Below are positions 1-62,972 of a stretch of 64,000 nt of DNA, one piece after another; positions within the stretch are counted from its first letter, which is position 1; the number at the start of each line of letters is the position of its first letter. The translations under genes and the position numbers were made by a program. This DNA comes from Dictyostelium discoideum (lineage: Eukaryota). Under the pieces are notes generated by a model. That model was not told the origin of the DNA. It was given only the letters and a program-made list of their open reading frames with translations, and ran no database searches. The stretch is from NCBI GenBank assembly GCA_000004695.1, contig CM000155.2, forward strand, positions 1,696,001 through 1,760,000, given 5' to 3'.

Positions 1-2
1 TA

Positions 3-255
3 TATCACGCCTCTTCACTTCCTTATGATTTTAACAACAATAATAATAACAATAATAGTAACAACTATAATAATAATACAAATGTACCAAATAGTTTACC
101 ATTTGCATACAATAACAATATTTATTCATCACCAACCGAGGCAATACCACAACCAACAACATTAAATAAATCTAAATCTCTTGAAAATACAGGTAATACA
201 ATTAGAGCACATCCATTTAAAGATGATAAAAAATCAACTACAATCCAACAACCGC

Positions 256-335
<80 letters not shown>

Positions 336-1850: not shown

Positions 1851-1907
<57 letters not shown>

Positions 1908-1910
<3 letters not shown>

Positions 1911-3365
1911 TACTGTTTAAAAATTTATATATTATTTTATATTCTAATAATATCAATGGTATCAATATCACAATGTAATTCATTTTTAATAAAAAGTAAA
2001 CCAGATGTTATGATTGTTGATGAATCAATTCAAATCCATGAAATTGTTTATCAATTATTCGTCCAAAAAGTTGATCATTTTAATTTATTAGATGATAGAA
2101 CATTTTTTCAAAGATTTGTTGTAAATTCAAAATATTGGAATGGCACTGGTCCAGTTTTTTTCATTATTAGTGGGGAACAAAATATGGAGGCCAGTTCTGT
2201 AAATTCTTGTCAGTATACAATTTGGGCCAAACAATTAAATGCATTAATCGTGTCTTTAGAACATAGATATTATGGTGGTAGTTATGTAACTGAAGATTTA
2301 TCAACTGATAATCTAAAATATTTAACAACTCAACAAGCTTTGGCCGATTGTGTTGTATTTATCGATTGGTTTACCAAAGTATATTATCATGTACCATCAT
2401 CATCAAAAATCATTTCATTTGGAGGAAGTTATGCTGGTACTTTATCAGCTTATTTGGCAATGAAATATCCTTCAAAAATAAGTTTCTCTGTTGCTTCAAG
2501 TGCACCATTGAACCCAGTGGTTAATTTTTATCAATATATGGAAGTAATTCAAAAATCAATACTTTTATTAAATAATGGTGAAAAATGTTTAAATAATATT
2601 AAACTTGCAAATAATAAAATCATTGAAATGATTCATGACCCAATATTAACTTATAATATTACAAAATTATTTGGTCTTTGTTCAAATATTGATTTTGATA
2701 ATGATTTATCAACATTCATGTTTGAAATTGCAAATGTTTGGGGAACTGCTGCTCAATATGGTAATTTGGTACCTGGCTATATATCATTGGATTCATTATG
2801 TAATATTATGGTCGATGATTCAAAGGAACCATTGGATAACTATTTATACATTTGGTATGGTATGAAAAATTCTGATGAATGTAATGATGTTACCTATCAA
2901 ACAATGATTGCAAATTTTAAATATAGTCAAATCGACCATTTAAATACAAGAAATGAATTATTTAATATGACAAGACAATGGTTATTTCAATGTTGTACTG
3001 AATTTGGATTTTTCATTACAAGTGATTCATATGATCAACCTTTTACTAATTTCAATTTCAATTTTCAAAGACAAATTTGTATTGATGTATTTGGAAAAAA
3101 ACCTACACTTTCAACAAGTTGGACTTTGGTAGAGTATGGTGGTATTAGTCCAAACTATAACTCTGTTAGAAATGTTTTATTTGTTTCAAGTACTAATGAT
3201 CCTTGGTCATCTCTTTCAATTTCAAAATCAAATCAATATAAAATCGTTATAGTTGAAAATGGTACCCATTGTTCTGATATGATACCAATAAACGAAGTTT
3301 CTGTACCTGATGTTGCAAGGGCTCAAAATGAAATATTTAATTATATATTAGATGCTTTAAATTAA
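1908..3365 (+). CDS. Serine peptidase of family S28 (lysosomal Pro-X carboxypeptidase, PRCP/DPP7-like), secreted
   Basis: A single 485-aa ORF preceded by a roughly 50-nt poly(A) promoter tract. It has an N-terminal hydrophobic signal, the motif FFQRF..DHFN, and the catalytic-serine motif FGGSYAG typical of S28 (GGSYGG). The ORF is uninterrupted. Confidence 0.75.
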
Positions 3366-3549
3366 TTATAAAAAACAAATATTATTATTATATTTTATAT
3401 TTTTGTACAATAAATAATTTTAAAATAAATAAATAAAACAAAATTAAATAAATTAAATAAAAAAACAAATTATGAAATTGTAATTGATTAAATGGAAAAT
3501 GAAAGATATCCCATCATATTTGGAAAATAAAAACAATTATTAAAGTACA

Positions 3550-5995
3550 TTGAAATTATTTTTTTTTTTTTTTTGATATAAATAAACTATTGTAGTATAC
3601 AATTAGTATGTTATTTTTATTTATTTATTTTAGGTTTTTTAGTTTTTGTGAATTTAAAATGGTATGTTATTTTAGATTAGGTAATTAATAATTAATTGGT
3701 GGTGTAATTGTTGGAATTGGTTCATTTGTGTTTATGCTCCATTCTTTTTTAAATTTTTTGATGGTTTCGGACCATTGGGTTTCTTTTTGAGTTTTTGTGA
3801 GGTTGTTTTTAATTGAGTATTGGTTAAAGTTTGATAATGTTCTTGAATATTCCAATCTTATTAGCTTGTGCCATTTTGATTTTAATATATCATAATCTAG
3901 TGTTATGTTGTTTATTTGGTTGTTCCAATTGTCAATTGATTGAGTTATATTGATGTCAAATAATGATTTGCATAACCATATCCATATTTGGTGAATAACT
4001 AATGAGATTATGTTCCAATATGCATGTGTTCTGACTAGATCAAGATTTGTGTTTATATAATTCCAGTTGAACCTGTATTTTTTATATTGTGCGTTTTCTG
4101 CAAAATGAAAATTAATATTGATAGTTGGATCTGGTTTAAATGCTTTGTTGTTTGTTTGTGGTTTATCAATGAGTGTGTATAATTTTGTTGTTTGGTTTTT
4201 TGTTAGTGACCAGTTTTTGTTTCCATTGCAATTTTTATATATAAAATATTTTAATTTGTCGTGGTTTATGAAGTTGATTGTGTGCTGACAATTGAAAAAC
4301 AAATGACCATAGGGATCATTATTCATTTCATTGTTGCAAATGGGGCAAACTTTGTTGTGTAGATGATTAATCGGAAGACATCTAGCATGGAATCTTTGCT
4401 TGTATAACGGCCTTTTGGATCTTTTAATTTTTGAATTTTGACAAATAGTTGGTCGTATGTGTATTTCCATAATAGTTGTATTGATTGTTGGTGCGAAGTA
4501 AGAAGTAGATCTGAATATTTCTTGCCAACATAGTCTTTTGATTTGCATTGGTGATTGTTGAGTATTGTCGAGTAGATTTCTTTGAGTGTTGGTGGTAGTG
4601 AAATATTATTTGTGGTTAATGTTTGAGAGGTTTGGTTTTTTGTTAATATTGGTTGTAGGGTTTGAACTTTATCTTTTAGATGTCCAATTTGAGTTGCATA
4701 GTTTTCCCATTCTTTTTTGATTTTTATCAGGTATGGAGAAGAGATTGATTTGTTGATGATTTGATCCATCCAACTTATCATGTATATTGAGTTATTTGCA
4801 GATTTATGCATTTGTAAAAATCTGTTGTATATCCATATCTTTTGAGCAACTTGTCGTAATTGTATATTCCACATACCCCAACCACCTTCTTTTAATGGTT
4901 TTAATGATATATCATAACACATCAAAGGTATTTTTGCACGTGAATGGATGGTTGATGTGTTGTTTTCAATGGAATTGGTATTGAGAGTTGGTGATTCAGA
5001 ATTTGAGGGAGAATTCATAAACCATGAGATTAATTTATTAATTTGAATTTCTTCATCTTTTGTAAATTCTTCAAGGTATGATAAATATGTTATTGGTGAT
5101 AGTGAGTAGGTGTTTATTATGGTTGTTTTTGTTTTTAATGTTGTGCCACTAGTTTTCCATAGTACTAATGATTTGATCAGTGTTTTCATTGTTTCTGGTA
5201 ATTTCCTATGTAAACCATTATGATTAAAGAAATAGCCAAGAACTCTTTCTGATTGATCTTTTTTGGTTATTGGTATTCTTTTTGATTGTGGAATGTTGTT
5301 TATTATGTGTTTATCAGTGATTTTGTGGGGGTTGATTTCTATTATTGCACTTTTGTTAAAATTTAATGATGATGATGTTGAAGAGCAGAAATTATCGAAA
5401 TGTTTGATTGATTGTTGTTGTTGTTGTTCGTAGTTGATGTTGTATGTTGTAGAGTCGTCTGCAAATTGGGTAAATTTGATTTTAATTTGTGGATTGGGTG
5501 AAATTGGTAATCCAATTATTGTATTGTCTGCATATATTGTTCTAGCTAATATTTCAATTACAATTACAAATAAAGTGGCTGAGATTGGGTCACCTTGTTT
5601 TACACCTCTTTTAATATCGAATTTTCTGGTCGTTTTACCATTAATTGAAATTTTTGCTTGTGAGTCAGATAATAGCTTGTGGATTAAATTTATTAATTTT
5701 ATTGGTATACCAATATTAATTAATGTTCTTTTAATACTATCGTGAGAGATAGAATCAAATGCTTTAAAGAAGTCAAATAGTGTGATGATACCAGGGAGGT
5801 TTTTAGATTTGAGGTAATTGATTAATTCATTGATGTTGATGATGTTGTCTATGATGAATCTGTGGGGTACGAAACCAGTTTGGTTGTTGTTGATAATGAA
5901 AGGAAGTATTCTCAGAAGACGTGCATTGAATACTTTTGAGAGGATCTTGTAATCAGTGTTTAGAAGTGTAATGGGACGACGATTTGATAAATTAT
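3550..5995 (-). mobile_element. 5'-truncated tRNA-gene-targeted non-LTR retrotransposon (TRE3-like), carrying the ORF2 reverse-transcriptase domain, a C-terminal Cys/His region and a 3' UTR with oligo(A)
   Basis: Minus-strand translation of about 5990-5190 gives LINE reverse-transcriptase motifs (RRPITLLNTDYKIL, FDSISH, GVKQGDPISATLF, FADD). ORFs 4323..5189 and 3685..4548 continue ORF2 and end in a DPYGHLFFNC Cys/His motif, which is shared with the element at 63.3-64 kb. The 3' UTR and oligo(A) lie on + at 3556-3684. No endonuclease domain or ORF1 is present, so the 5' end is truncated. The element sits downstream of the minus-strand tRNA-Lys. Confidence 0.7.
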
Positions 5996-6356
5996 TTAAT
6001 TAAATTTTTTTTTTTATTTTTTATTTTTTATTTTTTTTTATTTTATTTTTTTATTTTAAAAAAAAACAAAAGATTCTTAATTTATTAAAATTAATCTTGA
6101 TTAGATTTTTTTTTTTTTTGGTTTTCGTTTTGGTTTACTGTGTGTTTGTTGAGGTTTTTGTATTAAAAGGTTGAGGTTTTTGTATTAAAAGGTTGAGGTG
6201 TATTTGTGTGTGTGTATGTGTGTTGATGTTTTGTTGACGTTTTTGCAGTTTTATGTAAAAATTTTACAATTGATTATTTCTTTTTATTGTTTTTTTATTT
6301 TTATTATTTATTATTTATTTATTATTTATTTTTATATAATTTGAAGTATATTATAT

Positions 6357-6674
6357 TTAATCCAACATTCCTTCTGGTAAAGCATCATCTGGATTATCGG
6401 TACCTTTTTCAGTTTCTTCTAAATCAGCTGATAAACATTTATAAGCTGGAGTAAGGAAAAGTGCTGCAAATGTAACTGTAACCCATGTCATATTTAAAAT
6501 TTTTCTAGTTGTGAAACAAACCAAATTTGCTGAACTAACAATAATATTTCCTAATGTTTTGTTGGTGCTTAATCTACTAAAAAATCCAACTGAAGGTTTT
6601 GGTGTTTCGTGAGATGTAGTTGCTGGTAATGATTTATTTTTTTTGGTTGGTTTCTTTGTTAATCCTTTTGCCAT
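6357..6674 (-). CDS. Hypothetical 105-aa small membrane protein with a basic N-terminus, one predicted transmembrane helix and an acidic C-terminal tail
   Basis: A clean ATG..TAA ORF with noticeably higher GC and codon bias than the flanking sequence. It lies between the two TRE3-like copies. No family was recognised. Confidence 0.4.
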   Translation of the reverse strand: MAKGLTKKPTKKNKSLPATTSHETPKPSVGFFSRLSTNKTLGNIIVSSANLVCFTTRKILNMTWVTVTFAALFLTPAYKCLSADLEETEKGTDNPDDALPEGMLD

Positions 6675-6764
6675 TTTTACTAATTATATATATATATATG
6701 TTGAGGTGATTTAAATATTATTTGTGTGTTTGTTCCTCCAAATTTTAAAATTTTTTTTTTTTTT

Positions 6765-6956
6765 TTTTTTTTGATATAAATAAACTATTGTAGTATACAA
6801 TTAGTATGTTATTTTTATTTATTTATTTTAGGTTTTTTAGTTTTTGTGAATTTAAAATAGTATGTTATTTTAGATTAGGTAATTAATAATTAATTGGTGG
6901 TGTAATTGTTGGAATTGGTTCATTAGTGTTTATGCTCCATTCTTTTTTAAATTTTT

Positions 6957-6997
<41 letters not shown>

Positions 6998-7118
6998 TGG
7001 ATTAACAAGATTGATATATCTACCTATTTTTGATTGTTTCGGACCATTGGGTTTCTTTTTGAGTTTTTGTGAGGTTGTTTTTAATTGAGTATTGGTTAAA
7101 GTTTGATAGTGTTCTTGA

Positions 7119-7126
<8 letters not shown>
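6765..7126 (-). mobile_element. Second, short 3' fragment of the same TRE3-like element, interrupted at 6961-7030 by a (T)32 tract plus the 3' terminus of a different TRE-like element
   Basis: 6769-6960 and 6993-7126 are near-identical to 3556-3850. The inserted stretch aatattggattaacaagattgatatat preceded by poly(T) is the same sequence found at 63248-63300, the 3' end of the element at the tRNA-Ser locus. Confidence 0.65.
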
Positions 7127-7154
<28 letters not shown>

Positions 7155-7203
7155 ATTATTTTTTTTTTTTACCTAAAAGCGGTGTAAAGAGTGGGGAGAT
7201 CCG

Positions 7204-7244
<41 letters not shown>

Positions 7245-7274
7245 ATTATAAACAAAAGATTTTAAAAAAAAATT

Positions 7275-7347
7275 CGCCCAAAGGGGGGCTCGAACCCCCG
7301 ACCACAAGGTTAAAAGCCTTGCGCTCTACCGACTGAGCTATCTGGGC
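7275..7347 (-). tRNA. tRNA-Lys (anticodon UUU)
   Basis: The reverse complement folds as a cloverleaf: acceptor stem GCCCAGA/TTTGGGC with discriminator G, D-arm GCTCAGTCGGTAGAGC, anticodon stem CAAGG/CCTTG with loop CTTTTAA, T-arm GGGGGTTCGAGCCCCC. Length is 73 nt with no encoded CCA. Confidence 0.9.
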
Positions 7348-8174
7348 ATTTTATTAGAATTATTTTCTTAATATAAGATTTTATAGAGTATATATATAAT
7401 ATAACTAGTATCTCAAAGCAATTAAAAATATCAAATTGTTGGTATTGAGTTATTAAAAAGAATCGTGTTATTTATTTCTTCGTTTTAATTTATCATTCTG
7501 TTATACAATAAGTTAATTTGTAAAGTAAATTTATTTAGGGTGTAATCAAATTTAAAAAATATAAAAAAATAAATGAAAAAAAAAAAAAAAAAAAGTGAAC
7601 TTTTGGGTAAAACGTACGTTAAACATTACAAGGGTTACAACAAAATGACCCTATATAGATTTTTATTTTTTTTTATTTTTTTTGAATTTTTTTTTAAATT
7701 TTTTTTTTGAATTTTTTTTTTTTAATTTTATTTTTAAATTAAATTTGATACCAAAGATAAACAAATGAGCTGTTTAAAAAAAAAAAATAAAAATAAAAAT
7801 AAAAAAAAAAATAAAAATAAAAAATAACTAATAAATTTCAAACAGAAATAATAACAATAATAATAATCTAGATTTATTATAAAAATTAAGAAATCCTATT
7901 AATAATAATAAATAAAATTTTTTTTTTATTTTTTTTTTTTTGTTTTGGTTGTCCCCCTTTTTAATTCATTGTTAATTTTTTATTTATTTATTTTCTATTT
8001 ATTTTTTATTTTTTTATTTTTTTTTTTTGTTCACTTAAATATATTTATATATATATAATAATTATTGAATAAATAAAAAAAAAAAGGCGGGTTGGGTGAA
8101 CAAAAAAAAAAAAAAAAAAATTATTTATTTAATTATTTATTTAATTTTAATTTAAAAAAAAAAAAAAAAAAAAA

Positions 8175-11100
8175 ATGAGACCATTACAACAATGGTCTTT
8201 GTATATAGTATCAATAATAATAATAGTAATTTTAAAAATTGGTAAGTATGAAAAAAAAAAAAAAAAAAAAAAAAAATCGAAAAATTAATTTTTTATTTTT
8301 TTTTTTTTTTAAATTTAGAAAATTGTTTAAGTTCAACCAATTTTATGCCAACATTGGCAGTTGAAAGAAGGTCAACATTATTTATAGGTAATTTAACAAT
8401 AGAATCATCAGAAAGGGATTTAACTATAGGGTTATTACCAGGTACAGGTAATAATTTTGAATGGTTAGTTTTTAAAGATGGATTTAGTTTAATGGAAGGA
8501 AGGAGAGTTCAATCAGATGAATCGAATGATGCATTAAAATTTCAATGTGTTACAAGCTATGATAGTGGAATTTATTATTTCAAACAAAACGACCCAACAA
8601 ACACAGGTTACAATATAGAAACGGAAAGATTCATATTAAATGTCATTGGTAATGATACGGAAACATTGGTAATGATTAGAGAACCATCATCAATAGTTAT
8701 GTCTGGTACATCATTTTCAGTACAACCAGTGATTGGATTTGGAAGAGCGAAATTACCAACATGGAAAGGTGAATCCCGAGGAAGAATTGAACCAGTGATA
8801 TTGGAAAGTCCATCCAACGGGAAGAACATGCATTTTCTACTACAATTTAGAGGTGTCGATATAGATTTGGAGAGAAAAGAGACGACATTCAATACGCTCT
8901 CTCTAATTGGTGAGCCTGGAGTATATAGAATTGGATTCATTGATACCGATACATGTGAAATGTATAAATCAACAATGGAAATCACAGTTATTGGTACATT
9001 GAATTCGCTTTACTTTGAATGGTCATTGTCAGCATTCATAGTGTTATTAATAATCATAGTATCATTGGTAATCAATTTCATAGCAAAACATAAGGTGAAA
9101 TCAAAAGGATTCCTATCATTGAAGATGGCATTCCTCACACCAATGGAAAGTATATACAAATTCAAAGGTGAATCGATTAGATTCTACTTTAAATCACAAA
9201 GATTATTAGTATTCCAATGTTTATTCTTTACTTTTATCAGTTTGGTATTGTTCATACCAGTCACAGTGAAAGGTGATAACAAATTCCGAGACATGATACT
9301 ATTGTCACAAGCCAATTGGAATGCAAATTCACCATTTCTATTCTTTTATCAAGTGCAAGTGTTTTTATTATTCTGTTCATTAATAATTTGTTATACAAGA
9401 TTCAATGATGAAAGAATATATCTTTCACATGATAGTAATCATTTGGTAACATCAAGAAGTGTATTATTGACAGGCTTACCAAGATCATTGACCAATGTTC
9501 AAATGTTGAAAGATTTCCTTCAAACTGGTTATTCAAATGGTGTTTATTCAGTCTCAATCATTCTTATTAAAATATTTTCACAATCAGATAAAGATAACGA
9601 TTTAAATGGTAGATTGGAACATATCTATGTCGATCCAAATACTGATATAAATCAATTACCATCAGAATTGAAAGTTGAATCAACTGGTAAAGCATTTATA
9701 ACATTTTCATGTGTATCGGATGCTCATTTATTTACAAATCAATTCTCATCATACAAATGGACAAAATCATTAATTAAACGTATCACTCAACCAGTTATAC
9801 CTCAAGAGTATCGTACTGAATTGGGTACTGATAATTGGAGGGCCCACCCTGCACCAAGAGTATCCGATATACTTTGGACAAAGTTACATGACCCTGCAAA
9901 TTTTAGAAATGTTGGTTGGACAATACTACAAATGATTGGTATAACATTCTTCTTTTTGGTGATTGTATTCTTTGCCATCATCTTTTACGAAACTCAATTC
10001 TCAATCATTGACACAATTTCACCCATAGATTATGGTACCAAACAAGCCATGCTCGTTAGTTTAACCTCTTATTTAGCCTATTACTTTTGTCCAAGCATTA
10101 TTCTAATGGGTTTAAATCATTCATTACCCGGTATTATTAGATTCATTCTAATGCGATCAAATAATTATGTTAGAAGCTTTTCAAAGAGTAAAGTCATGTT
10201 AATCACCTTTATAGCTCAATCATTAATCATCGTTATTTTCCCATCTGCTTATTTCTTAATCAATGTTAATCCAGATTCCGATCATGTTTCAAATCAAAAT
10301 CTATTCTTAGTACCAATTAAATTCTTACGTAGAGGTGGTTCATTCTATATTCATTTCATTACTATATTCGCTATGTTAACTCCATTCTTAGAATTATCAA
10401 ATCTTTCCGATATAGTTTATAAAATTTTATTTCATAGAAATTTAAAAACTGAAGAAATCTTTAGTTTTGAACCTTTAAATTTAAAAAAACAATATTTAAA
10501 TTCATTATTATTAGTAAGTTATTATTTTTTAAAAAAAATTTAAATTAAAAAAAAAAAAAAAAAACATATTAATTTTAATTTTAATTTTATTTAAATAATA
10601 ATATTAGGTAATGATGATTGGTTGTTATGGACCAATTTTTCCATTATTATGGGTATTTGTATTATCATATTTAATTGTTAAATTTTATTTAGTTAAATAT
10701 GTTTGTATTGCTTCAAAGGCACCAATACCACCAAGTGATAAGTATTTTGCAGTTTCATTTCAACAATGTATTTGGTTCATTTTAACAGTGATATCAACAT
10801 TTCATTTCTATTATGTAGTTTCATTTGGCCGTGTTGATTTAATGTGTGTCTATATATTCTTGGTTGTCGTTGCATTTGGTAAATATTTCCCATCTTGTTC
10901 AAAGAGTTTATGTTATAGTTTCTTTGATGGTGCAGTTTTACCATGTTTTTCAAAAGATAATGGTAAAAATAAAAAAAGTAATTCAATTGATCCAAATGAT
11001 TCAGATTATTATGATGATGAAAGAGATCAAGATTATTATCAAGATTCTGATGATTCAGATTATGATGATGATGATGATGATCAATATGAAGATAATCATA

Positions 11101-11494
11101 GAAATAATGATGGTTATTATCAATATGATGATGATGATGATGATGAAGAAGAAGATGATGATGATGAAGAAGAATATGAAGATGAAGATGAATACGAAGA
11201 TGATCAAGTAGAATTAAGAAGAAGAATGTATGGTAATAGATATAATGATAATGAATATACAGAACAAGATTCATCAGGCGAAGAATATGATGTAAATTCA
11301 CCACCAGAATATTATTATGATGAAGATCGTGGTGAATTTGTTCAACAATTCCCAAGTTCTATTCATCGTCGTAATAATAATAATATGAAAAAACAAAGAG
11401 CAAATTATAGTAATAATAATAACAATAGCAATAACAATAATAATCAAAAACAGCAACAACAGCAACAACAGCAACAACAGCAACAACAGCGACA

Positions 11495-11525
<31 letters not shown>

Positions 11526-11541
11526 AAAAAACAAAAACATC

Positions 11542-11611
<70 letters not shown>

Positions 11612-12149
11612 TTACAATGTTAATTTAACAGAATCATTTGGATCAAGGCCACCACAACCTATTTCTAATGGTGTTTCAAGTGCAGTTTCTCAGCCAGCAT
11701 TACCATTATCAGCAATTCACTCACCATTACCACCACCACCACAACCAGCAACAACAACTACTACAGATTCAAATACAGATTCTAACAGTGGATTACATGA
11801 TGATTTAATTAATGAATATCTTAAAGAACCAAATCAAGATGATGTTAAATTAAATATTCATCATAAATCGAAATTAAAACAAAAGATTTTAAAGATTAAA
11901 CAAAGTTATACTCAAGATCAAGGTTTTGGATTTATGTCTAGATTCTTTGGTCGTTATAAGTTACCAACTCCAGAGTCAATGACTGTTATAACTTATCTAT
12001 CTCCTTATTTTGGTTTGGATATTTCTCAGTGTGAAAATGTTAAAGATATAGAAGAAGAAGAAGATCAAGATATTAACGATGATGATTATGAATATGATGA
12101 TGAGGATAATTTAGGTGGAGGTGGTGATTATGAAGACTATTCTTCTTAA
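8175..12149 (+). CDS. OSCA/TMEM63/CSC1-family mechanosensitive, calcium-permeable cation channel homologue with signal peptide, N-terminal ectodomain, multi-TM core and a long acidic/polyQ C-terminal tail
   Basis: Three exons are proposed: 8175..8241 (MRPLQQWSLYIVSIIIIVILKIG, signal peptide; donor GTAAGT), 8319..10513 and 10608..12149; frames check across both introns. Family hallmarks: the cytosolic motif SRSVLLTGLPRS (compare TVLVTxIP) and the DUF221 start WRAHPAPRVSDILWTKL (compare APxPxDIiWxNL), followed by about 7 TM helices. The tail is rich in D/E/Y and has a (CAA)n polyQ run at 11452-11610. Confidence 0.7.
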
Positions 12150-12600
12150 AAATAATAATAATAATAATAATAAATAATAATAAATAATAATAAATAATAA
12201 ATAATAATAAATAATAATAAATAATAAATAATAAATAATAAATAATTATAGAATAATTTAGATCTAAAAAAAATGGTTCAAAGAATAAATTAAATCTTGT
12301 TTTTATTTTTTTTTTTATTTTTTTTAAAAACTCCACACAACTCAAAAAAAAAAAATGAGTTTCCCCACACAACTCTTTTTTTTTTTTTTTTTGTTGATAG
12401 TCTATTTTTTATTTTTTTTTAAACAGACTATTTTTTTTTTATTTTTTTTGTTAATAGTCTATTTTTTATTTTTTTATTTTTTAATTTTTATTTTTATTTT
12501 TTTTTTTTTTTTTAATCTTTTAGTCTATTTTTTTTTTTTATTTTTTTTTTTTAATCTTTTAGAACTTACACCACAACCAAACATTGTTGATTTTAAGAAA

Positions 12601-14848
<2,248 letters not shown>

Positions 14849-14860
14849 TATGTTGGGGGG

Positions 14861-14925
<65 letters not shown>

Positions 14926-15272
14926 AGTAATTAATAATTCAAATAGTTAAATAGTCATTAATTAAAATTTTGATAGTTTGACTATTTAATTTTATTATTT
15001 TTTTAAAAAATATATTTAAAAATTAAATAAAAATAAATCAAAAAAAAAAAAAAAAAAAAAAAAAACATAAAGTCAATTGATTTACCATAAAGTTCAAAAT
15101 TCCACAAAAACATATTTTTTCTTTGAATCATCAAAAAAAAAAAAATCTATTTTAATTTTTATTTTTTTTATTTTTTTATTTTTTTTTGGTCATCATAAAT
15201 CAGAAATTCTAATTTTAAAAAAAAAACAAAAATAGTTAAATAAATAAAAAAAAAAAAAAAAAAATTTAAAAA

Positions 15273-15824
15273 ATGACAACTAAATACATAGTTTTGGTTA
15301 GAGCACTTAGTACAAAGATTAAAATGAAAGATTTAAAAGATCAATTAGAAAAGATTAAAGGATTTAAAAATTTAAAAACATTTTTTACAACTGGAAATAT
15401 TATTGTGGATGTACAACAAACAATGACTAAAAAAGAAGTTTGTATGGAGATTTCAAATGTTCTATCAAATGAATACCAAATGGAGAAACCATTGATGGCA
15501 ATTTTCAATATTGAAGAATATAATGATATATTATCATCAAACCCATATGAAAAATCAAATGAAACTAAAACTGTGATTTTCTTTCCAATTAATGAATTTT
15601 TAAAACAATCTGATTGTGATAAAGATAAAGATTTCATGACAAAATCATCTCAATGGCAATTAGTAAATGGTGTCATTTGGTATTTAGGTCCAACAACTGG
15701 TACTGCTTCTGATGTTAAAATTTTTAAATTAATTGAAAAAAAGATAAAACCAGGTTCAAATCATGAATATACATTTCGTACTTTAAGATCAAGTCAAAAA
15801 ATATTAGATACTGCAAATAAATAA
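15273..15824 (+). CDS. DUF1697-family protein (bacterial-type), 183 aa, intronless
   Basis: The N-terminus KYIVLVRALSTKIKMKDLKDQLEKIKGFKNLKTFFTTGNIIVD matches the DUF1697 signature (yIaLLRGINVGGkn.vkMaeL...l...Gf..V.TyiqSGNvvf). Its length is typical for the family, about 180 aa. It is flanked by long poly(A) tracts like other Dictyostelium genes. Confidence 0.55.
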   Translation: MTTKYIVLVRALSTKIKMKDLKDQLEKIKGFKNLKTFFTTGNIIVDVQQTMTKKEVCMEISNVLSNEYQMEKPLMAIFNIEEYNDILSSNPYEKSNETKTVIFFPINEFLKQSDCDKDKDFMTKSSQWQLVNGVIWYLGPTTGTASDVKIFKLIEKKIKPGSNHEYTFRTLRSSQKILDTANK

Positions 15825-16189
15825 AATAAAGTAAAAATAAAATAAAGTAAAATAAAATAAAATTAAATAAAATAAAATAAAATAAAATAAATAAATTATT
15901 TATTTATTTTTTTTATTTTATTTTTTATTTTTACTTTATTATTATTATTTTTTCTATAACAAAATTAATTTTTTCAGTTTTTTAAAAAAAAAAAAAAAGA
16001 TTTGTTTTTTTTTTTTTCTCTTTTGGTAATTTAATTTTTTACTTTATTATTTTTTTTTTTTTTTTTTTAATTAATTATTTTGTTTTTCCTTTTCTCCAAA
16101 TATAAACTTTTTTATTTTTTTTGTTTTTTATAATTTTGTTTTACTTTTTCTATTATATATATTTTTTTTTTATTATCAAATATAACACA

Positions 16190-17578
16190 ATGGAAAATAA
16201 CTATTTTTGCACAATAAATGATTTATTATTAGATACATCACTGATTGTTGATGAATATTCATGTCCTCTTTGTAATCAAATATTATATAAAGCTGAAATT
16301 TATCAATGTAAAGAGGTATGAAGTTGAAATAGTAAAAAAAAAAAAAAAATTTAATTTCTAGATTTTAATGAAAGTAAAAAAAAAAAAAAAAAAACTAATT
16401 TTTCATTTTTTTTTTTTTTTTTCTGTTTCAACAAAAAAAAAAAAAAAAAAAAAAAAAATTATTGGGGATTTTGGAATTGTAAAGAATGTTGGTTAGATTT
16501 AATAACAGAAGGTGAGCAGCGTAAAGATTGTAAATGTATAATTCAATCAATTAATGATTTATCAAGATCAATATTCATTGAAAATAAATTTTCAAATCAA
16601 AAAATAAATTGTCCATTTTCATTTTCATATATAAAGAAAGATTATCAATATATTGGAGGTAGTGGTGATGATGATGATGATTATGATGATGAAAATGATT
16701 CAATACCATTAATTAAAGATAAAGAGAATGGATGTAAACAAATAATTACAGTGGAAGAATTAGATACACATTTAAAACAATGTCAATTTAAATTTGTTGA
16801 ATGTCCAAATAAAAAGAATGGTTGTGAAATTCAATTTAGATTTAACAAATTAGAGATTCTAAAAGATCATGAACAAATATGTGATTCAAGATTTGAAAAA
16901 TGTAAACATTGTTTAGAATTAATTGTATTTAAAAATTTAAATTCTCATCAAGATCAATGTATTAAAACATTAATTGAGTGTATTAGTTGTAAAAGTCACA
17001 TTGAAAGAGGAAAATTGAAAAAACATTTAAATCTAAATTGTCCAAATGAAATCGTTGATTGTGCATTCAAAGCCAATGGTTGTAATGATCAAATGAAAAG
17101 AGTCGATCTATCACAACATTTATTAATTTCAAAACATATGTTATTCATTTCAGAATCGATTGAAAAACAGCAAAATCAAATCCAACATACTAAAAGAAAA
17201 TATTTAAAATTAAAAAGAAAAATTCAAGAAATTAATGAAAATTCAATTAATAAAATTTATGAAAATGATTGGTTCATAAAGAATTTTACAAAATCAAAAA
17301 AAAAAGTTGGTTCTTTTTTTTTAGGTCCTGAATTTAAAATTGGTTCTTTTGAATTTGGTTTATCATTGTATCCAAATGGTAGAATTGATACATTTGAAAA
17401 TCATTTAGTAATTGCATTATTTGAAAAAAGTGGTCTTTATAAATCAGTAACTGTAGAATCTGATTTTACATTAATTAATAAAGAAGAATCTGATAATAAT
17501 AATAAAAACTATTTTTTTGAAAATTGTAAGTTAAAACTAAATTATTTTAATAAAAAATTCTATACAAATTCTAATTAA
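16190..17578 (+). CDS. TRAF-like protein: N-terminal RING-type zinc finger, zf-TRAF repeats and a C-terminal MATH domain
   Basis: Exon 1 is 16190..16315 (MENNYFCTINDLLLDTSLIVDEYSCPLCNQILYKAEIYQCKE, donor GTATGA). The coding frame resumes by about 16463 (WGFWNCKECWLDLITEGEQRKDCKC...) and is open to 17578. zf-TRAF motifs include CPNKKNGCEIQFRF..HEQIC. The MATH domain shows NDWFIKNFTK...FGLSLYPNG. The exon-2 acceptor is unclear because a 26-nt A run precedes it. Confidence 0.65.
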
Positions 17579-17801
17579 TTTATTTTTATTTAATAATAAC
17601 AACAACAATAACTTTAACAACAATAACTATAACAACAACAACAACAACAACAAATAGTAATTCAACCAAAAAAATGGTATTGTAATAGAATGATGAAATT
17701 TGAAAAGATCAACAAAAATGGGTTTTTAACTAATGATACACTACATATAAAGTTTAAAATTGAAGTTTTTAATTGGATTTTAACACCTTTTGAGACAGAT
17801 G

Positions 17802-17835
<34 letters not shown>

Positions 17836-18169
17836 TAAAAATAAAGGTAAAAAAAAAAAAAATAAAGAAAAAAATTTAAAAGTAAATAAAAAATAAAATA
17901 AAATTGCGGTATAGGCCAATCTTTGGAAATTAAAAAAAGTCAGAAATCTAGATTTTTTTTTTATGAATTATTTTAAAATGATTAATTTTTAAAAAAAAAG
18001 TTTTCCACATACACACGGTTGGAGCTTACAAAATTAGGTAAAGATATATCTAGAAAAAAAATAATAAAATAATAAAAAATAAAAAATACCAATAATATAA
18101 TTATTTTAATAATAATAAAAAAAAAAAAAAATAAAAAAAATAATAATAAAATAAAATTAATAACAAAGT

Positions 18170-20170
18170 ATTAAAAGTAAGAGATTTGGTTATTTAAAAT
18201 AATTACCAATATTGGAAAGCTATCATGTTTACGAATAATTTGACCATTATTATAGTATTGTGGCTCTCTATTTTGGTCTTTTATAGTATATATTTGATCA
18301 TGAACGGAACCTGGGAATCCCTCAGGATGTAGTAACAATAATCTGTATGATCTAGTGCATACCTCACAATGAAATTTGACCACATGACTTTGCTTTTACC
18401 AGAATAGTATTTTTTTTTTGGATTTGGTAATCAGTGGGAGTTTCAATAACAATAGAGGTAGATTCAGCAGCAATTGCACGATAAAGCACATTAGATATAG
18501 GATGTTTTAAAAAGCCAACTGATTCAACAAGTTTATCATATCTCTTTTCCATTTTTTCCTTGCATACAACTCAAAGTGAATGAATGGTTGACTATAGTGA
18601 TTTTGAAATGTTTTTGGACTAATACCAAAAGTAACACATATTTCATAAATTGGAAGATATTGTTTCCAATATAAGAGAGTCTAGCACAAAAAAAAATAAA
18701 AAATAAATAATGTTATTAATTAATTCATTTTATTTTTTACATTTTTTATTTTTTTTTTTTTTTGTTTATAATTTTTTTTTTTTTTTACATTTTGTTTAAT
18801 TTATGACTTGGTGTAATTTTACCAAATTATTTAATTTAATTAAATCTAATTTAATTTAATTTAATTTTTTTTTTTTTCATTTAATTTTAAAAAATGAGTA
18901 GTTTTTAATGGAACATATTATTGTCTAAAAATAGATATTTATTTTTAAAAATAATATTATTTTTTTTTTTCTATTCAAAATTAGAAATTTCCAGAAAATC
19001 TTAAAAAATACGTATTTCATTTTAAAAGTTAAGGTAATTTTGTTTTTTTATCTAAAAAAAAAAAACATATTATTGTAAAAAAGAATATGTATTTTTGGAA
19101 TAATAATATTATTTTAAAAATTTACACAAAAATCTTTTGTCTTTATGAACATTTTAAAATCAAAAATTAAATTAAATTAAATTAAATTAAATTAAATTAA
19201 ATTATATTAAATAGGTATAATTTTTTGACTTGTGGAAAAAAAAAATTATTATGTGAAGGGGTAAAAATTTTTACATAAAATTTAATTATGTTAATCGGGG
19301 TGTTAAATTTTTCTTTAAATTTTTTTTTTTAAGTTGTATTTTTTTGATTAAATAAATAAATTCATAATTATTTCCTTCTATTAATAAAAAAAAAAAAAAA
19401 AAAAAAATTCATAATTATCTCCTTCTATCAATAAAAAAAAAAAATAAATAAATTCATAATTATTTCCTTCTTTTAATAAAAAAAATGGTAAACTCTTGAC
19501 CAAGAAAAAAGCAAATGACTCAACCAAATTTAATGTTGTATTCTTTTGGATTAGAACCTGATATTATAGATAAATTATTAAATTTAATTAATGAAAATGA
19601 AGAACTTAAAGAAAAACGTATTAAAGATAAACATATAATTTGTGTGGGTGTTTAATATTAAAATAAAACTATAAAAAATAAATATAATAATAAAAATAAA
19701 AATAAAAATAAAAAATAAAAAATAAAAATAAATGTTGAAAATGAATAAATTAATAACATTATTTTTTTATTTTTTTTTTTGTGTTAGACTCTCTTGTGTT
19801 GGAAACAATATCTTCCAATTAATGAGATATGTGTTACTTTTGGTAATAGTCCGAAAACATTTCAAAATCACTATAGCCAAACCATTCATTCACTTTGAGT
19901 TGTATGCAAAGGAAATAATGGAAAAGAGATATGATAAACTTGTTGAATCAGTTGGCTTTTTAAAACATCCTATATCTAATGTGCTTTATCGTGCAATTGC
20001 TGCTGAATCTACCTCTATTGTTATTGAAACTCCCACTGATTACCAAATCCAAAAAAAATTACTATTCTGGTAAAAGCAAAAGTCATGTGGTTAAATTATT
20101 CGTAAACATGATAGCCTTCCAATCTTGAGTAATTATTTTAAATAACCAAATCACTTCCTCTTACCTTAAT
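18170..20170. repeat. Roughly 2-kb element-like structure with two long inverted repeats (about 18170-18680 and 19790-20170) around a central segment that carries its own internal direct repeats
   Basis: The reverse complement of 18380-18620 is nearly identical to 19790-20075; both encode MEKRYDKLVESVGFLKHPISNVLYRAIAAESTSIVIETPTDYQIQKK. The left arm holds an extra roughly 150 bp (encoding HCEVCTRSYRLLLLHPEGFPGSVHD...) bounded by a short ggt(c/t)aaat direct repeat and missing from the right arm. The central region has aatttaattt and aattaaatt arrays and a three-copy 45-bp tandem repeat at 19360-19480. The whole structure is flanked by the direct repeat (caa)n-atagtaattcaac at 17634-17668 and 20410-20440. 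Confidence 0.6.
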
Positions 20171-20699
20171 AATTTGTTATTAATTTTTATTTTATTATTA
20201 TTATTATTATTATTTTATTATTACAATAATTATATATTATTGGTATTTTTTATTTATAAAAATTAAAATCTGGGGCAATATAAAAAAAAAAAAAATAAAA
20301 AAAATAAAAAAAAAAAATGTGAAAATTAAAAAAATAAAAAAAAATAAAAATATTTACACCAACTTTTCATTTTTACATAAAATTTATAAAAAAAAAAAAC
20401 AAAAAAAAACAACAACAACAACAAATAGTAATTCAACAATATATTTTTTTTTATGTTTTTTTTTTTACATTTTCTTTTTGGCTTCACATTACTGTTTTTT
20501 TTTTTTTTTTTTAAAATTTTAATCAAACTATTTTTGTGCGATGTCAATTATTTCTAGATTTTTATCTCTTTTTTAGATTACTAAAACAAATATGATAAGA
20601 TTAAAATATTAAAAAAAAAAAATAAGGGGGAATTCAATATTAATTTATTTTTAAAAATGATTGTTTGTATATATACTATATTTTATTTTACTTAATTTT

Positions 20700-20835
20700 T
20701 TTTAAAATTTTTGGGGTTATAAATATATCTCTTATTAAAGATATTTTTAATAATTAAAAATCTCTTATTAAAGATATTTTTAATAATTAAAATTTTTGGG
20801 GTTATAAATATATCTCTTATTAAAGATATTTTTAA
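20700..20835. repeat. Minisatellite of about 55-bp units (ttttggggttataaatatatctcttattaaagatatttttaataattaaaa), two to three copies
   Basis: Read directly in the sequence. Confidence 0.8.
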
Positions 20836-21007
20836 TAACCAAACTCACAAAGATTAAAATTTACCAATCATTTTATAACCAAGACACTATCTTGATTTTT
20901 TTTTTTTTTTTATTTTTTTTTTTTTTTAAAAGTTGCTGTTTATCCATTTAATTTTTAATTATTTAATACTTTTTTTTTTTTTTTTTTTTCTTTATTCTTA
21001 CTAAATT

Positions 21008-21046
<39 letters not shown>

Positions 21047-21074
21047 TTATTTTTGTATAAAAAGTGAAATAAAA

Positions 21075-24000
21075 ATGATTGAAAGTCAAAGGGAATTTAA
21101 TTGTATTGGTGGTGATAATCAGAATGGTGTCGCAGTTATTGGTGTAGGTTTTAAAATCCCATTAGATCTAGAAAATTGTTTATCAAGTCCAAGTGAATTA
21201 TATTCAGCATTATTTAATGAATTTGATAGTGTAACAAAGAATACAAGTTCACGTTGGTCTGATAACTATTTTAAAAATGGTGATATTGTTAGTCTTAGTG
21301 CAGGTTTATTACCACTCAGAGAAATTAAATCATTTGATCCAACTTTTTTCGGTATTAATCCATCCGATGCAGATTTAATTGATCCTCAACAAAGATTATT
21401 ATTAAAATGTAACTTTTTTTTATTTTATTTTTATTTTTATTTTTTTATTATTAACAAATTTAATTAAATAAATATATTAGGTGTTTGGAATGCATTAGAA
21501 GATGGTGGTATTGACCCAATCAGTATTCGTTCATCAGATACTAGTGTCTACATTGGTTGTTCAACTATTGACTATTTTCTTTTAAATAGAAATCCTGTTG
21601 ATCCTCATAATCATGGTATTCAAACCGCAAGTTATTCAATTCCAAATAGAATATCATATTGCTTTGATTTTAGAGGTGAAAGTTTGTTTGTTGACACTGC
21701 ATGTTCATCATCACTAAATGCAGTTCATCTTGGTTACAATTCAATTATAAATTTAAAATCAAAATTATCAATTGTTGGTGGTTCCAATTTAATTTTAGGT
21801 ATGAATTATCTTTTTATTTATTTTTTTTTTTTTTTTTTTTTTGTACTATTATTAATATTATTATTAATATTATTATTATTATTTTTATTTTACTGACATA
21901 TATATATTTCCTAGATCCACAAAATAGTATTTTTTTTTCTAAACAACAGGTGAATGGTCCAAGTGGTAAATGTAATAGTTTTTCAGAAGAAGCAGATGGC
22001 TTTGTTCGTAGTGAGACAGTTGGTGTAGTAGTATTAAAGAATTTAAAAGATGCAATTAAAGATGGTGATAGAATTTATTGTGTAATTCAAGGTTCAAATT
22101 CAAATGTTGACGGAAATTATGAAAAATTAAATTATATTTCACCTTCAAAATTATCACAAGCTGAAAATATTACCAAAGCATTAAAATCAACAAATGGTGC
22201 GGTGAATGCATCTGATATTGATTATTTCGAATGTCACGGTACTGGTACACCAACTGGAGATCCAATCGAATTAGAAGGTATATCAATTGCATTAAATAGA
22301 ACTCAACAATCTACAACATTATCAAATCCACTTTTAATAGGTTCAATTAAATCAAATATTGGTCATGGTGAGGCAAGTAGTGGTATAGCCAGTTTAATTA
22401 AATGTTGTGTAATGTTTAAATATCGTCAATTTTTACCAAATATTAATTTCAAAACACCAAATCCATTAATCAAATTTAAAGAATGGAATTTAAAAGTTGT
22501 AACTGAACCAGTTCCATTCAATAATAATAAACAAACTATTATGGCAATTAATAATTTTGGTGTTTCTGGTAAGATTTTAATATAACAATAATAAGAGCAA
22601 AACAAGATAATCAAACTACTAATATTTACTATTTTTTATTTTTATTAAATAGGATCAAATTGTTGTATTATTTTATCAGAATATAAAAGTAATAACAACA
22701 ATAATAATGATTTTAAAGCAACAACACATTTAAAATCAAAGAAATTTATTATACCATTTTCATCAAATTCCTCAACATCATTAGACAATTATAAATCATT
22801 ACTTTCAAATGAAACAAATAATTTTCAAGATTTTGTTATTAAACAAATTAATAATAAATCAACATCATTAATTCAAAGATCAGTAATCATTGCAAGTAAT
22901 TGGAGTGAATTTAATGAGTCATCAAATGAAATTCAATCAAATATTAAAAAATCAATTATATCTAATATCACAATTAAAAAAAAGAATGCAGTTACAGTAT
23001 TTGTATTTTGTGGTCAAGGTTCGCAATATAATAAAATGGCATTATCATTATATGAAAATGAACACATTTTCAAATCAACAATGGATAAATTAGATAAAGA
23101 ACTATCCAAACACTATGGGTATTCAATTTTAGAAAAATTAAGATCAATTACAGATGAAGATTTAGTAACAATTCATCAACCAATTTTAGCAATTCCAGTT
23201 AATGTAATGGTTCAAGTATCTCTATATGAATTGTATAAACATTGGGGTATTAAATCAGATATTATGGTTGGTCATTCGTTTGGAGAAATCGCTTGCTCTT
23301 ATTGCTCTGGTATGGTTGATTTTAAAACATTATGTTATTTAACATACCACAGATCAGTAGCTCAGAATAAAACAATTGGATCAGGTAAAATGTTATCAAT
23401 TAATATTGGTGCTAAAGAATACTTGGATTCTTATTCAACTAAATATCCATCGGTAGAAATCGCATGTTATAATAGTGAAACATCAATCGTTATTGCAGGC
23501 AATGAAGAATTATTAAATGAAATTTCAAAAGATTTAAAATCAAAAGATATTTTTACAGCAATGTTACCATCATTATCAGCATTTCATACAACACACCAAT
23601 CAGTTATTAAAGATGATATTTGCTCATTGAATTTTAAATCGACATTATCAAAAATAACAGTATTTTCCACAGTCACATCTAATCAGTTTGGTATTAATAA
23701 TAATAATAATAATAATAATAATCAACTTAATTCAAATTACCTTTTTCAAAATGTTATTCAACCAGTTAAATTTAGTGAGACAATATCAAATATATATAAA
23801 TACATTGAATCAAATGATATGGGTAATGAAATAACATTTATTGAAATTGCACCACACCCAACATTACAATATTATTTAAATCAAATGAAGTCACAACAAT
23901 CAGAATACTTTAATAATGGTGAAAAGATTTCAATCTATTCAGCATGTAATAAAAAGAAGAATGATTATAATGAATTTTTAAAAACAATTTCAACATTGTT

Positions 24001-26504
24001 TGTAAATGGTTATAATAATATTAATTTTAAATCTCAAATTATTAATAATAATAATAATGATAATAATAATAATTTTAATTTACCATTATATCAATGGGAT
24101 GATAATGAATATTATAAAATTCATCCAACATGGAAAAAAGCAAATAAAAATGGACCATCAATTAATCATCTTGGAAATCTAAATGATTCTTCAATTAAAT
24201 CATTTAAAACCTATATTAATACAAGAAAACCACAATTCCAATGGTTAAAAGGTCATTCTTTAAAAGGAAAAGTTGTATTCCCTGGTATGGGTTATATTTC
24301 AAATTTACTCTCAGTTTATAATATGAACCAAGATATTACAATTAATGAAATTCAATTCAAAAGTGCATTTATTTTAGTCGATGGTGTTAATAACTGTTTA
24401 GAGACATCGATTGTACCATTAACAAAGAATGAATTCAATATTAAATTTCATTTTAAAGATTTAAAAACAAATAAATGGGTATTATGTGCAAATGCTAATT
24501 ATAGTTTATTTAAACATAATGATAATAATGATAAACTTGATATTGAAAAATTAAAATCTAATTGTAATTATACAATAATTTCAAAAGATGAATTATATAA
24601 TAATATTAGAGCTAAAAGTGGATTGATTTATAAAGGTTTATTTCAAGGTGTTAAAGAAGCTTTCATTGGTAATAGATGTTCGTTAACAGTTTTATCATTA
24701 AATGAAATTGAAAACCAACAAGAGTTTAAACATTTATTAGAGAATAGAAACTTCAATTCATTATTTAATACAGCAATTTTAGATTCATGTTTACATGGTT
24801 CACTTCACTCAAAAGAACAATCTCAAATTTATTTTGACAAATGTGAAGGTTTTAAATATTATTCAAACAATATTAATTTAGCAACTTCGAAAAGAAATGA
24901 GTACAAAGAGATTAATGTTTATATTGAAACGAATCCCGTGATCAATTCAACAGTTATTGTAAGTTTAAAAATTATGTTACCAGATGGAACATTATTAATT
25001 GAAATTCAAAAAGTAGTTTGTAAATCATCAATACCAATTATTGATAGTACCTCAGTTATTCAACCATCACCAAAAGATTTACACACACCATATTATCAAC
25101 CAAAAAACTCATTAATTAAACCACCACAATCATTTAAACATTTACATTGTATGAAAGAATTTGCAAGTATAGAATCTGATAATAGAGAAATGGTGTATAT
25201 GTCAATTTATCATTTAATTTTTAAAGCCATCAATGCTAGATCTCCAACAAAAATCAATTTAGAATCCCTTGAAAATTTAACATTAGATCAATTTAAAGAA
25301 TTAATAAAAGACAGTGCAGCAAATATTCAACGTTCCAATCAATTTATATATGAATGTTTAAAACTATACCATACAAATCATTCAAATTATAAAAAAAATC
25401 AAATTAAAGATTTTATTAAAGAATGTGAAGATTTTAATGGATATAATCAAATAATTTTTAAAACAATTAAAATCTATGCAAAATCATTATTCCCATTACC
25501 AGATGACGATCCATTTACAGATACAATTCAATCATTGTTTGAAGATGATCAATTAGAAAACGTTTACATCCATTTAAAACACCTTTATCCAGTAAACAAT
25601 TTATTAAGTGAAATCGTTTTTCAATCAATTAAACCAATAATAAATCAAACATCAACATTTAGAATTTTAGAAATAGGAGCAGGTTATGGTACAATCTCAC
25701 AATTAATATTTGACAAACTCGAACAACTATTAGCAGATAATTTCACATCATCAAGAATTGATATAGAATATACATTTACTGATATTTCAAATACTTTCTT
25801 ACCAAGAGCAAAAGAGAGATATTCAAAATATAAAAGATTCAACATAATTTACAAACTCTTAGATTTAGAACTTCCTTTAACAGAGGGAATTCAAGATTTT
25901 AGACCATTATATTATGATATAGTTGTTATGTCAAATGTTTTACATGTTGTAAAAGATATTAATTTCAGTACAAATGAAATCTATAAAGTTTTAAAACAAA
26001 ATGGTCAATTAATATTTGTAGAACCAACATATAAAAATTTATATCTTGATACTATATTTGGCATATTTCCACAAGTAAGTAGTTATTAATATTTATTATT
26101 ATCTATTTATTAATCTAATATATTTTTTTTTGTAAGTGGTGGTCATTTAATGATGATATTAGAACTGATAGATGTTGTCTTGAACCTTCAAAATGGTTTG
26201 AATTTTTAGAAACAATTAATTTTAAAGATACAATTATTTTGGGTCAAGATAACAAAGAAATCTTGAAAAATGTTGAAAATTCAATAATATTAGTACAAAC
26301 TAGAAAACCATCACAACTTGAATTATCGATAAATAATTCACCATCAACCAACCAATTCAAATCTTTTGAAAACATAATATTATATACTGATGATAACCAA
26401 CAACCAAATGATTGTAGTGAAATTATCGATTTATTAAAATCATTAGAACTACCAATTAAAATAATTAACAATATAGACCAATTTAATCAAATTATTAAAA
26501 CACA

Positions 26505-62890: not shown

Positions 62891-62972
62891 GACATCGTAG
62901 CGAAGTGGTCTAACGCGTTTGACTTGAAATCAAATCTCCTAGGAGGCGCAGGTTCGAACCCTGCCGATGTCG
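62891..62972 (+). tRNA. tRNA-Ser (anticodon UGA)
   Basis: Acceptor GACATCG/CGATGTC with discriminator G; anticodon stem TTTGA/TCAAA with loop CTTGAAA; long variable arm TCTCCTAGGAGGCG; T-arm GCAGGTTCGAACCCTGC. Length is 82 nt. Confidence 0.9.

Follow-up and report, generated by a model that had tools for sequence, protein, structure and literature searches.

A probable decayed PIF/Harbinger transposon with an inverted pair of partial copies on chromosome 6 of Dictyostelium discoideum

We analysed a 64,000-nt stretch of Dictyostelium discoideum chromosome 6 (assembly GCA_000004695.1, contig CM000155.2, positions 1,696,001 to 1,760,000; hereafter the window, numbered from its first letter). Our subject is the region between the TRAF/MATH gene DDB_G0292484, which lies on the + strand with its stop codon at 17806, and a polyketide synthase (PKS) gene that starts at 21075. 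This region contains a long inverted repeat and, as judged from sequence comparison, is very probably an immobile, decayed remnant of a two-gene PIF/Harbinger DNA transposon of D. discoideum and its close relatives.

Features of the locus

Self-alignment of the region detected two inverted matches, one between 18373–18797 and 20097–19661 (90.7% over 439 bp) and a second between 18077–18246 and 20255–20088 (82.7%). The core of the arms (18412–18561 and 19909–20058) spans 150 nt and is 99% complementary. A first-pass annotation of the same DNA had placed the arms at 18170–18680 and 19790–20170; they are real and longer than that, and its coordinates in general were off by a few bases to a few tens of bases. 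A segment of about 150 bp that it described as lost from the right arm was recovered as 136 bp that the left arm has kept, with deletion edges TGGTCAAATT and TGGTTAAATT and 10-bp direct repeats on either side. The simple-repeat arrays, the 45-bp tandem repeat and the small open reading frame (ORF; placed earlier at 19507–19650 with 47 codons) were also found in the centre of the region:

18829–18887: simple-repeat array, ATTTA, 11.8 copies
19164–19212: simple-repeat array, AAATT, 9.8 copies
19350–19485: tandem repeat with a period of 45, 2.9 copies, 85% matches
19515–19655: small ORF of 46 aa, identical to the AX4 gene model DDB_G0292486 on the 3.6-Mb chromosome 6

Further out lies a 36-nt direct repeat (17631–17666 and 20402–20437), with 34 of its 36 bases alike in the two copies. 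Its 13-mer ATAGTAATTCAAC occurs at two places only in the 64-kb window, both of them within this repeat.

The transposase gene and its relatives

Both arms had been said to carry the same gene fragment, and they do: the fragments are parts of a DDE_Tnp_4 transposase gene. When the arm ORF was compared with transposase families, DDE_Tnp_4 was indeed matched, though only weakly by the stitched left-arm protein on its own (minus strand, frames joined; E = 1.5e-4, 21.9 bits, below the Pfam cut-off of 24.8 bits). In a database search with the arm protein, clear relatives turned up in Dictyostelium alone: the protein is 83% identical to P0001 of D. discoideum strain ACTFIW and 69% identical to P0002 of D. 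firmibasis, both of which lie above the Pfam threshold for DDE_Tnp_4. Two apparently intact relatives, P0007 (326 aa, D. firmibasis) and P0008 (327 aa, D. cf. discoideum), cover positions 2–157 of the 158 in the DDE_Tnp_4 profile (PF13359) and score above its curated cut-off (E = 2.9e-22 for P0008 and 3.2e-19 for P0007). In an alignment with distant Harbinger-like proteins of eukaryotes, their AADST, GDRAY and RVYVENFF motifs coincide with the D, D and E, and D126, GD(R/K)xY and RVxVE line up with these homologues. A profile-free exhaustive search over 1.8 billion representatives found no more than 30 proteins with E < 1e-3. These belong to dictyostelids (D. purpureum, Polysphondylium violaceum and D. 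dimigraforme) and, after them, to a few divergent eukaryotes. No solved structure was matched when P0008 served as the query of a sequence search. By homology, each arm is a frameshifted, partial copy of the same DDE_Tnp_4 (PIF/Harbinger) transposase gene.

The anatomy of the family was read from copies at other loci: L001, the ACTFIW contig with P0001; L002, where P0002 is encoded; L004, the D. firmibasis locus with P0007; and L005 from D. cf. discoideum. Intact members measure 3.8–4.1 kb and have terminal inverted repeats (TIRs) of 50–100 bp, a transposase of 326–327 aa and a divergent second gene. The transposase gene consists of three exons encoding about 327 aa, with a helix-turn-helix (HTH) and DDE_Tnp_4. 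At L005 it occupies 6001–7289 in three exons and adjoins a divergent three-exon gene at 4422–5686 (358 aa); the TIRs (3689–3787 and 7732–7830) are 99 nt long and 94% complementary, and the unit is about 4.1 kb. The L001 copy (7653–11457, 3.8 kb) has both ends (~91% match) and the same second gene. L004 retains the last exon of that gene and related, TIR-like ends that flank P0007, and at L002 only the right end is present, with a TIR following P0002. The partner gene, common to the L005 and L001 units and to L004, is absent from the window. A D. firmibasis copy adjacent to a PKS gene (L004) was considered as syntenic with the window and rejected, the PKS part having no blastn match to it.

The TIRs of the family begin AAATTTTATGAAAAAAT(A/G)AAAAGTTGGTG, and all six termini that we aligned begin AAATTTTATG. 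Target-site duplications, which the first pass had proposed to look for, were found as 3-bp repeats at the complete copies (ATT/ATT at L005 and AAT/AAT at L001), with ATT on the right flank at L002; the window has one end only. A TWA target (TAA/TTA) was tried and rejected for the six termini, as shifting the boundary by one base gave no matching TAA/TTA.

Both complete relatives, L001 and L005, carry the arm sequence once, as internal exons. Further loci hold family copies or fragments, including the AX4 chromosome-3 fragment DDB_G0282735; the loci are non-syntenic and many of the copies are decayed. Other genomic copies therefore exist, and the sequence of the arms is not confined to this locus.

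The surroundings of the L001 copy (4185–7169 and 11842–12235) are a transposon graveyard, with a hAT-type gene pair (Dimer_Tnp_hAT and ZBED1 RNase-like) and a reverse-transcriptase fragment. The same contig holds a second DDE_Tnp_4 gene of 284 aa with GDSAY and RRVYVEQFFGRL motifs, whose 31% identity to P0008 over 93 aa suggests a second, distinct Harbinger-like family in D. discoideum.

We then placed the pieces of the window on the element by blastn to L001 and L005. Element coordinates are those of the L001 copy (1–3805):

17631–17666, + strand: left copy of the 36-nt direct repeat, host sequence outside the transposon; 3′ end of the last intron and first 9 nt of the last exon of DDB_G0292484
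17966–18730, − strand: left partial copy of the transposon in inverted orientation, running from the last part of intron 1 through exon 2 and intron 2 into the first part of exon 3
18731–19484, + strand: start of the right copy, from element position ~1568; region between the two divergent genes, with the ATTTA and AAATT arrays and with the 45-bp repeat just upstream of the start codon
19485–19643, + strand: exon 1 of the right transposase pseudogene, reading MVNS*PRKKQMTQPNLMLYSFG...; codon 5 is a stop, and the exon closes with W53C
19644–19787, + strand: intron 1 of the right copy, identified by direct reading and against the P0001 gene model in L001
19788–20128, + strand: remains of exon 2 in the right copy, with a nonsense change (TGG to TGA), two frameshifts, E for the catalytic D and the 136-bp deletion at ~20097
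20129–20254, + strand: remains of intron 2 in the right copy; next comes a deletion of ~398 bp that removed exon 3 (element 3255–3652)
20256–20385, + strand: right subterminal region and right TIR; 20256–20386 corresponds to element 3653–3797, with the terminus ...CATAAAATTT at 20385
20386–20491, no strand: window-specific filler, from the end of the transposon to where similarity with the empty site resumes; holds the right copy of the 36-nt repeat (20402–20437)

The left copy runs from 18793/18730 down to 17966 (element ~2524/2585–3446 of 3805), is truncated at both ends and has no TIR. A tblastn search with P0008 read it in two frames with stops: it carries frameshifts, two in-frame stops and a TGG-to-TGA change, its first catalytic D is replaced by E, and 12–13 nt encoding the GDRA of GDRAY, which includes the second D, are deleted. 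The right copy aligns with L001 9220–10598 over 18721–20097 (blastn, 84.6% over 1440 bp; element 1568–2946) and resumes after the 136-bp deletion at 20093–20254 (element 3093–3254). Its second D and its E are both gone altogether, and it too contains frameshifts and in-frame stops. Given the lost catalytic residues and the stops and frameshifts in both copies, nothing at the locus is capable of transposition or of supplying transposase.

The small ORF of the first-pass annotation is a leftover of exon 1 of the right copy, since 19485–19643 encodes the N-terminus shared by P0001, P0002 and P0008 (M..RPTKKQKTQPNL.LYSLG.EPDIIDKLLYLI...KDKHIIW) and is interrupted at codon 5. The 18721–20097 alignment with L001 likewise identifies the loop between the arms as the element's own region upstream of the transposase gene. 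The ATTTA and AAATT arrays recur in L001, where the repeat unit, AAATTCATAATTA.TTCCTTCTATTAAT, is likewise found just before the start codon, in 2.2 copies with a period of 32. By this comparison the arrays and the tandem repeat are normal parts of the inter-gene region of the element and not a separate module.

At the right end, blastn-short of 20339–20387 against the L005 TIR gave 92% over 48–49 nt, and the terminal 29-mer of the family matched 20357–20385 with 2 mismatches, whereas none of 100 shuffles matched. Element positions 1–1567, which comprise the left TIR and the partner gene, were not found anywhere in the whole window. As aligned with its relatives, the remnant has its true right terminus in the TIR ending at 20385, and its left terminus is absent.

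Insertion and origin of the inverted pair

The orthologous TRAF and PKS genes are separated by 658 bp in D. citrinum, with no transposase homology between them, and by 600 bp in strain ACTFIW (L008, the empty site). The site is filled in strain ACTFIT (assembly GCA_054883475.1), which is 99.75% identical to the window over 20.4 kb. Since D. citrinum and ACTFIW both lack the block at this position, we regard it as a polymorphic insertion. In the alignment with L008, the 160 bp that follow the TRAF stop codon and the sequence from ~20492 on are common to the window and the empty site, so the window-specific block of about 2.5 kb starts at ~17966, and not at 17630 as had been thought, and extends to 20443–20491.

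Similar T-run motifs were seen at the two block edges (17950–17965 and 20444–20513), TTTTTTTTTTATG on the left and TTTTTTTTTATG and ACTGTTTTTTTT on the right. The empty site has a single ACTG-T12-CA-T14 stretch, and the edge runs may represent a short duplication made during the rearrangement or a low-complexity coincidence. Over 12000–26444 of the window, ACTFIW is mostly 84–93% identical, with 98% in the TRAF gene, as against 99.75% for ACTFIT; the label D. discoideum may therefore cover more than one lineage. A search with the neighbouring DUF1697 gene retrieved strain ACTFIT only, and neither the window ORF nor DDB_G0282735 gave an exact protein record.

The 36-nt direct repeat had been taken as bracketing the element. 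The repeat itself is real, with 34 of 36 bases matching, but it is not a target-site duplication. By comparison with D. citrinum, where the orthologous intron ends in ...AAATAG and is followed directly by AAATTCAACC, the left copy consists of the end of the last TRAF intron ((CAA)n...ATAG) and the first nine bases of the last exon; it is thus a host intron/exon junction. The right copy is found 17 bp beyond the end of the transposon, in window-specific filler of 58–106 bp. This arrangement suggests that a nearby sequence was used as a template for a short copy beside the transposon end, as might happen in error-prone repair of a break. A reading of (CAA)n-ATAGTAATTCAAC as polyglutamine-coding sequence in the TRAF gene was rejected, as D. 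citrinum shows an intron and a splice acceptor there. That last TRAF-like intron (17598–17653) contains an (AAC/CAA)n tract in D. discoideum and a long T-run in D. citrinum.

How might the inverted pair have formed? Intact elements presumably move by cut-and-paste, as other Harbinger elements do. One such element lies between DDB_G0292484 and the PKS gene on chromosome 6 in AX4-like strains. The right copy has lost its left 1.57 kb, with the left TIR and the partner gene, and further lacks 136 bp within exon 2 and a stretch of about 400 bp that contained exon 3; an inverted fragment reaching from exon 2 to the middle of exon 3 is joined to it head-to-head. One complex repair or inverted-duplication event at the inserted element, followed by gene conversion between the arms, could produce such a pair. 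Gene conversion is suspected because the changes shared by the arms, among them the TGA nonsense codon and the replacement of the catalytic D by E, fall within or close to a stretch of ~150–200 bp with 98–100% identity.

Several observations weigh against a Harbinger remnant formed in this way. The target duplications rest on two complete copies and are AAT/ATT, not the usual TAA/TTA; the partner protein (two exons) gave no Pfam match and no detectable Myb/SANT domain; the AX4-like genome itself showed neither a full-length nor a TIR-bounded copy; and the exact edges of the block are blurred by T-runs. Two further points concern the duplication. After polarisation with outgroups, the left copy, the right copy and L001 form a star, with 8, 9 and 9 private derived changes and 3, 2 and 2 shared ones, and the VMWLNY junction at the deletion in the right copy is apparently also that of DDB_G0282735 on chromosome 3, the left copy being undeleted.

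These last two points favour an alternative that we consider nearly as likely: two sibling elements inserted independently, the second in or beside the first in the opposite orientation, and deletions later trimmed both, with no local inverted duplication. The arms are about as divergent from each other as either is from L001 (94.6% identity between the arms and 93.4–93.7% to L001, over 441 columns common to six copies). Family copies also occur in transposon-rich DNA, L001 among hAT-like, reverse-transcriptase and other DDE_Tnp_4 genes and L005 beside a DDE_1 gene. This history, however, requires two insertions and the loss of three of the four TIRs through three or more deletions. It must also accommodate the nonsense and D-to-E changes that the arms share, although gene conversion could account for both, and the 136-bp deletion, lying between 10-bp direct repeats, could have recurred independently. 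Weighing the two, we infer that a single repair or duplication event is slightly favoured over two nested insertions.

We also considered whether the locus is a source of hairpin RNA, in which read-through from the TRAF gene over both arms would give double-stranded RNA and silence the family by RNA interference. The maize locus Mu killer is an inverted duplication of a partial MuDR transposase gene, and the likeness is apparent: an inverted partial transposase gene beside a host gene able to drive read-through, with a long predicted hairpin. The host gene, on the + strand, ends 160 bp upstream of the left arm. A 2.45-kb + strand RNA was predicted to form 519 arm-arm pairs, including a perfect helix of 142 bp, and cofolding of the arms gave −627 kcal/mol compared with −190 kcal/mol when the right arm was shuffled. 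Any inverted repeat would fold likewise, however, and the A-rich stretch that immediately follows the TRAF stop codon could be a poly(A)/termination signal. This strain is not known to contain an intact member of the family in need of silencing. Mu killer belongs to the Mutator superfamily whereas the window locus is Harbinger, and the resemblance is structural only, known here from sequence and a predicted fold. We therefore regard such a function, modelled by analogy, as unlikely.

A derivation of the region from a domesticated host nuclease gene of HARBI1 type, by duplication and decay into a pseudogene, is highly improbable as an alternative to a transposon remnant. HARBI1, a domesticated vertebrate nuclease, is of similar size and has DDE_Tnp_4, and some Dictyostelium copies are annotated as ordinary genes: P0002 and P0007 of D. 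firmibasis lie among such genes and have introns. The family also has a low copy number and a narrow taxonomic range. Yet the unit is bounded by TIRs and 3-bp duplications, P0002 is followed by a TIR and P0007 is flanked by TIR-like ends, and the loci are non-syntenic, vary between strains in presence and absence and include many decayed copies. Unlike HARBI1, the Dictyostelium genes are thus flanked by TIRs and target duplications, differ in location among genomes and decay freely, and no evidence of domestication was found among them.

The leading idea of the first-pass annotation, a foldback-type or new composite element with the arms as its ends and (CAA)n-ATAGTAATTCAAC as its target duplication, is in our view refuted: the long inverted arms and the flanking 36-nt repeat do exist, but the arms are internal transposase exons, present once in complete relatives, the genuine family TIR at 20339–20385 lies outside the right arm, and the left copy of the direct repeat is the host intron/exon junction upstream of the block. 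In foldback elements, long inverted repeats form the termini and are common to all copies; here the inverted repeats around a loop, which give the likeness to the FB type, are internal gene fragments peculiar to one locus. The transposon origin proposed earlier stands, and a palindromic gene duplication was listed among the options, but the foldback or terminal-repeat anatomy does not hold.

Relation to known transposons and gene annotation

PIF/Harbinger elements are characterised by a DDE_Tnp_4 transposase, TIRs, a 3-bp A/T target duplication and a second gene, and a TWA target is a common, though not universal, trait of the superfamily. Harbinger elements and rearranged dead copies of them are common in eukaryotes. 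The intact members of the family described here resemble the superfamily in having a full DDE_Tnp_4 domain with D-D-E, an upstream HTH, TIRs, a 3-bp duplication of A/T only and two genes. They differ from it in their AAT/ATT target, in a second gene without a detectable Myb/SANT-like domain and in a short, very divergent transposase (326–327 aa) with a dictyostelid-specific insert between GxxHD and GDxxY.

The catalogued DNA transposons of D. discoideum (Tdd-4/5, DDT-A/B/S and thug-S/T) share with the family their host, low copy number, TIR-bounded structure and genes with introns. Tdd-4 and Tdd-5 (Ginger2) encode Gypsy-like integrases and make 5-bp duplications (PMC2836005); the family, with DDE_Tnp_4 and 3-bp duplications, is therefore not Tdd. 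An intron hairpin of thug-S yields miRNA_can_D3 (AUUAAUUUCGGCAGCCAUAUU / UAUGGCUGCUGAAAUUAAUGUGG; PMC4894637), and these sequences had no match with up to 4 substitutions on either strand of the window or of L001–L005, complete elements included. The only D. discoideum DNA transposons listed in a 2017 review are Tdd, DDT and thug, whose transposases it describes as unlike any that are known (PMC5633606), whereas the present transposase clearly matches DDE_Tnp_4. AX4 labels DDB_G0292486 and DDB_G0282735 as plain hypothetical proteins without the _TE tag that is used for thugS and Tdd-4 genes, and P0002 and P0007 remain genes in the D. firmibasis annotation even after its screening against the D. 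discoideum elements of Repbase. We found nothing relevant on Dictyostelium Harbinger or PIF-Harbinger elements or on thug-T in the accessible literature.

On this basis we classify the family as a new or uncharacterised member of a known superfamily, with a real chance that an uninformative catalogue name already exists for it. We consider it quite improbable that everything would hold jointly: a Harbinger family absent from the classical catalogue, with an AAT/ATT target, a non-Myb partner, possibly active copies in D. cf. discoideum and D. firmibasis and distant homologues in D. purpureum and Polysphondylium, together with a hairpin small-RNA locus on chromosome 6.

The family is a modest addition to the list of amoeba transposons, not a new kind of element, and nothing about it is surprising in kind. 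It places at least one Dictyostelium DNA transposon family in a well-known superfamily; the catalogued transposases have been described as unlike any known (PMC5633606). Harbinger gains a divergent lineage whose target triplet is unusual and whose partner protein is uncharacterised. The insertion also serves as a dated polymorphism, present in some D. discoideum lineages and absent from others, and P0007 and P0008 are apparently intact copies that could be tested for activity. The annotation should also be corrected: DDB_G0292486 (46 aa), DDB_G0282735 (61 aa) and the strain gene models P0003 and P0005 are transposon pseudogene fragments and not genes. P0006, a 3′ fragment of the family fused to a MyTH4-domain gene, looks like an annotation artefact.

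Elsewhere in the window, an ~85-bp repeat with a 57-nt core lies upstream of the PKS gene at 20702–20843; its copies are 96% alike, a 33-bp perfect tandem repeat occupies 20727–20792, and strain ACTFIW apparently has the unit in one copy only. A long degenerate repeat array (12937–13862), with overlapping self-matches of 78–87%, lies inside an ORF at 12770–14848, and a related repeat is found at 11421–11618. The window also contains two tRNA genes, tRNA-Lys(UUU) at 7274–7348 and tRNA-Ser(UGA) at 62891–62972.

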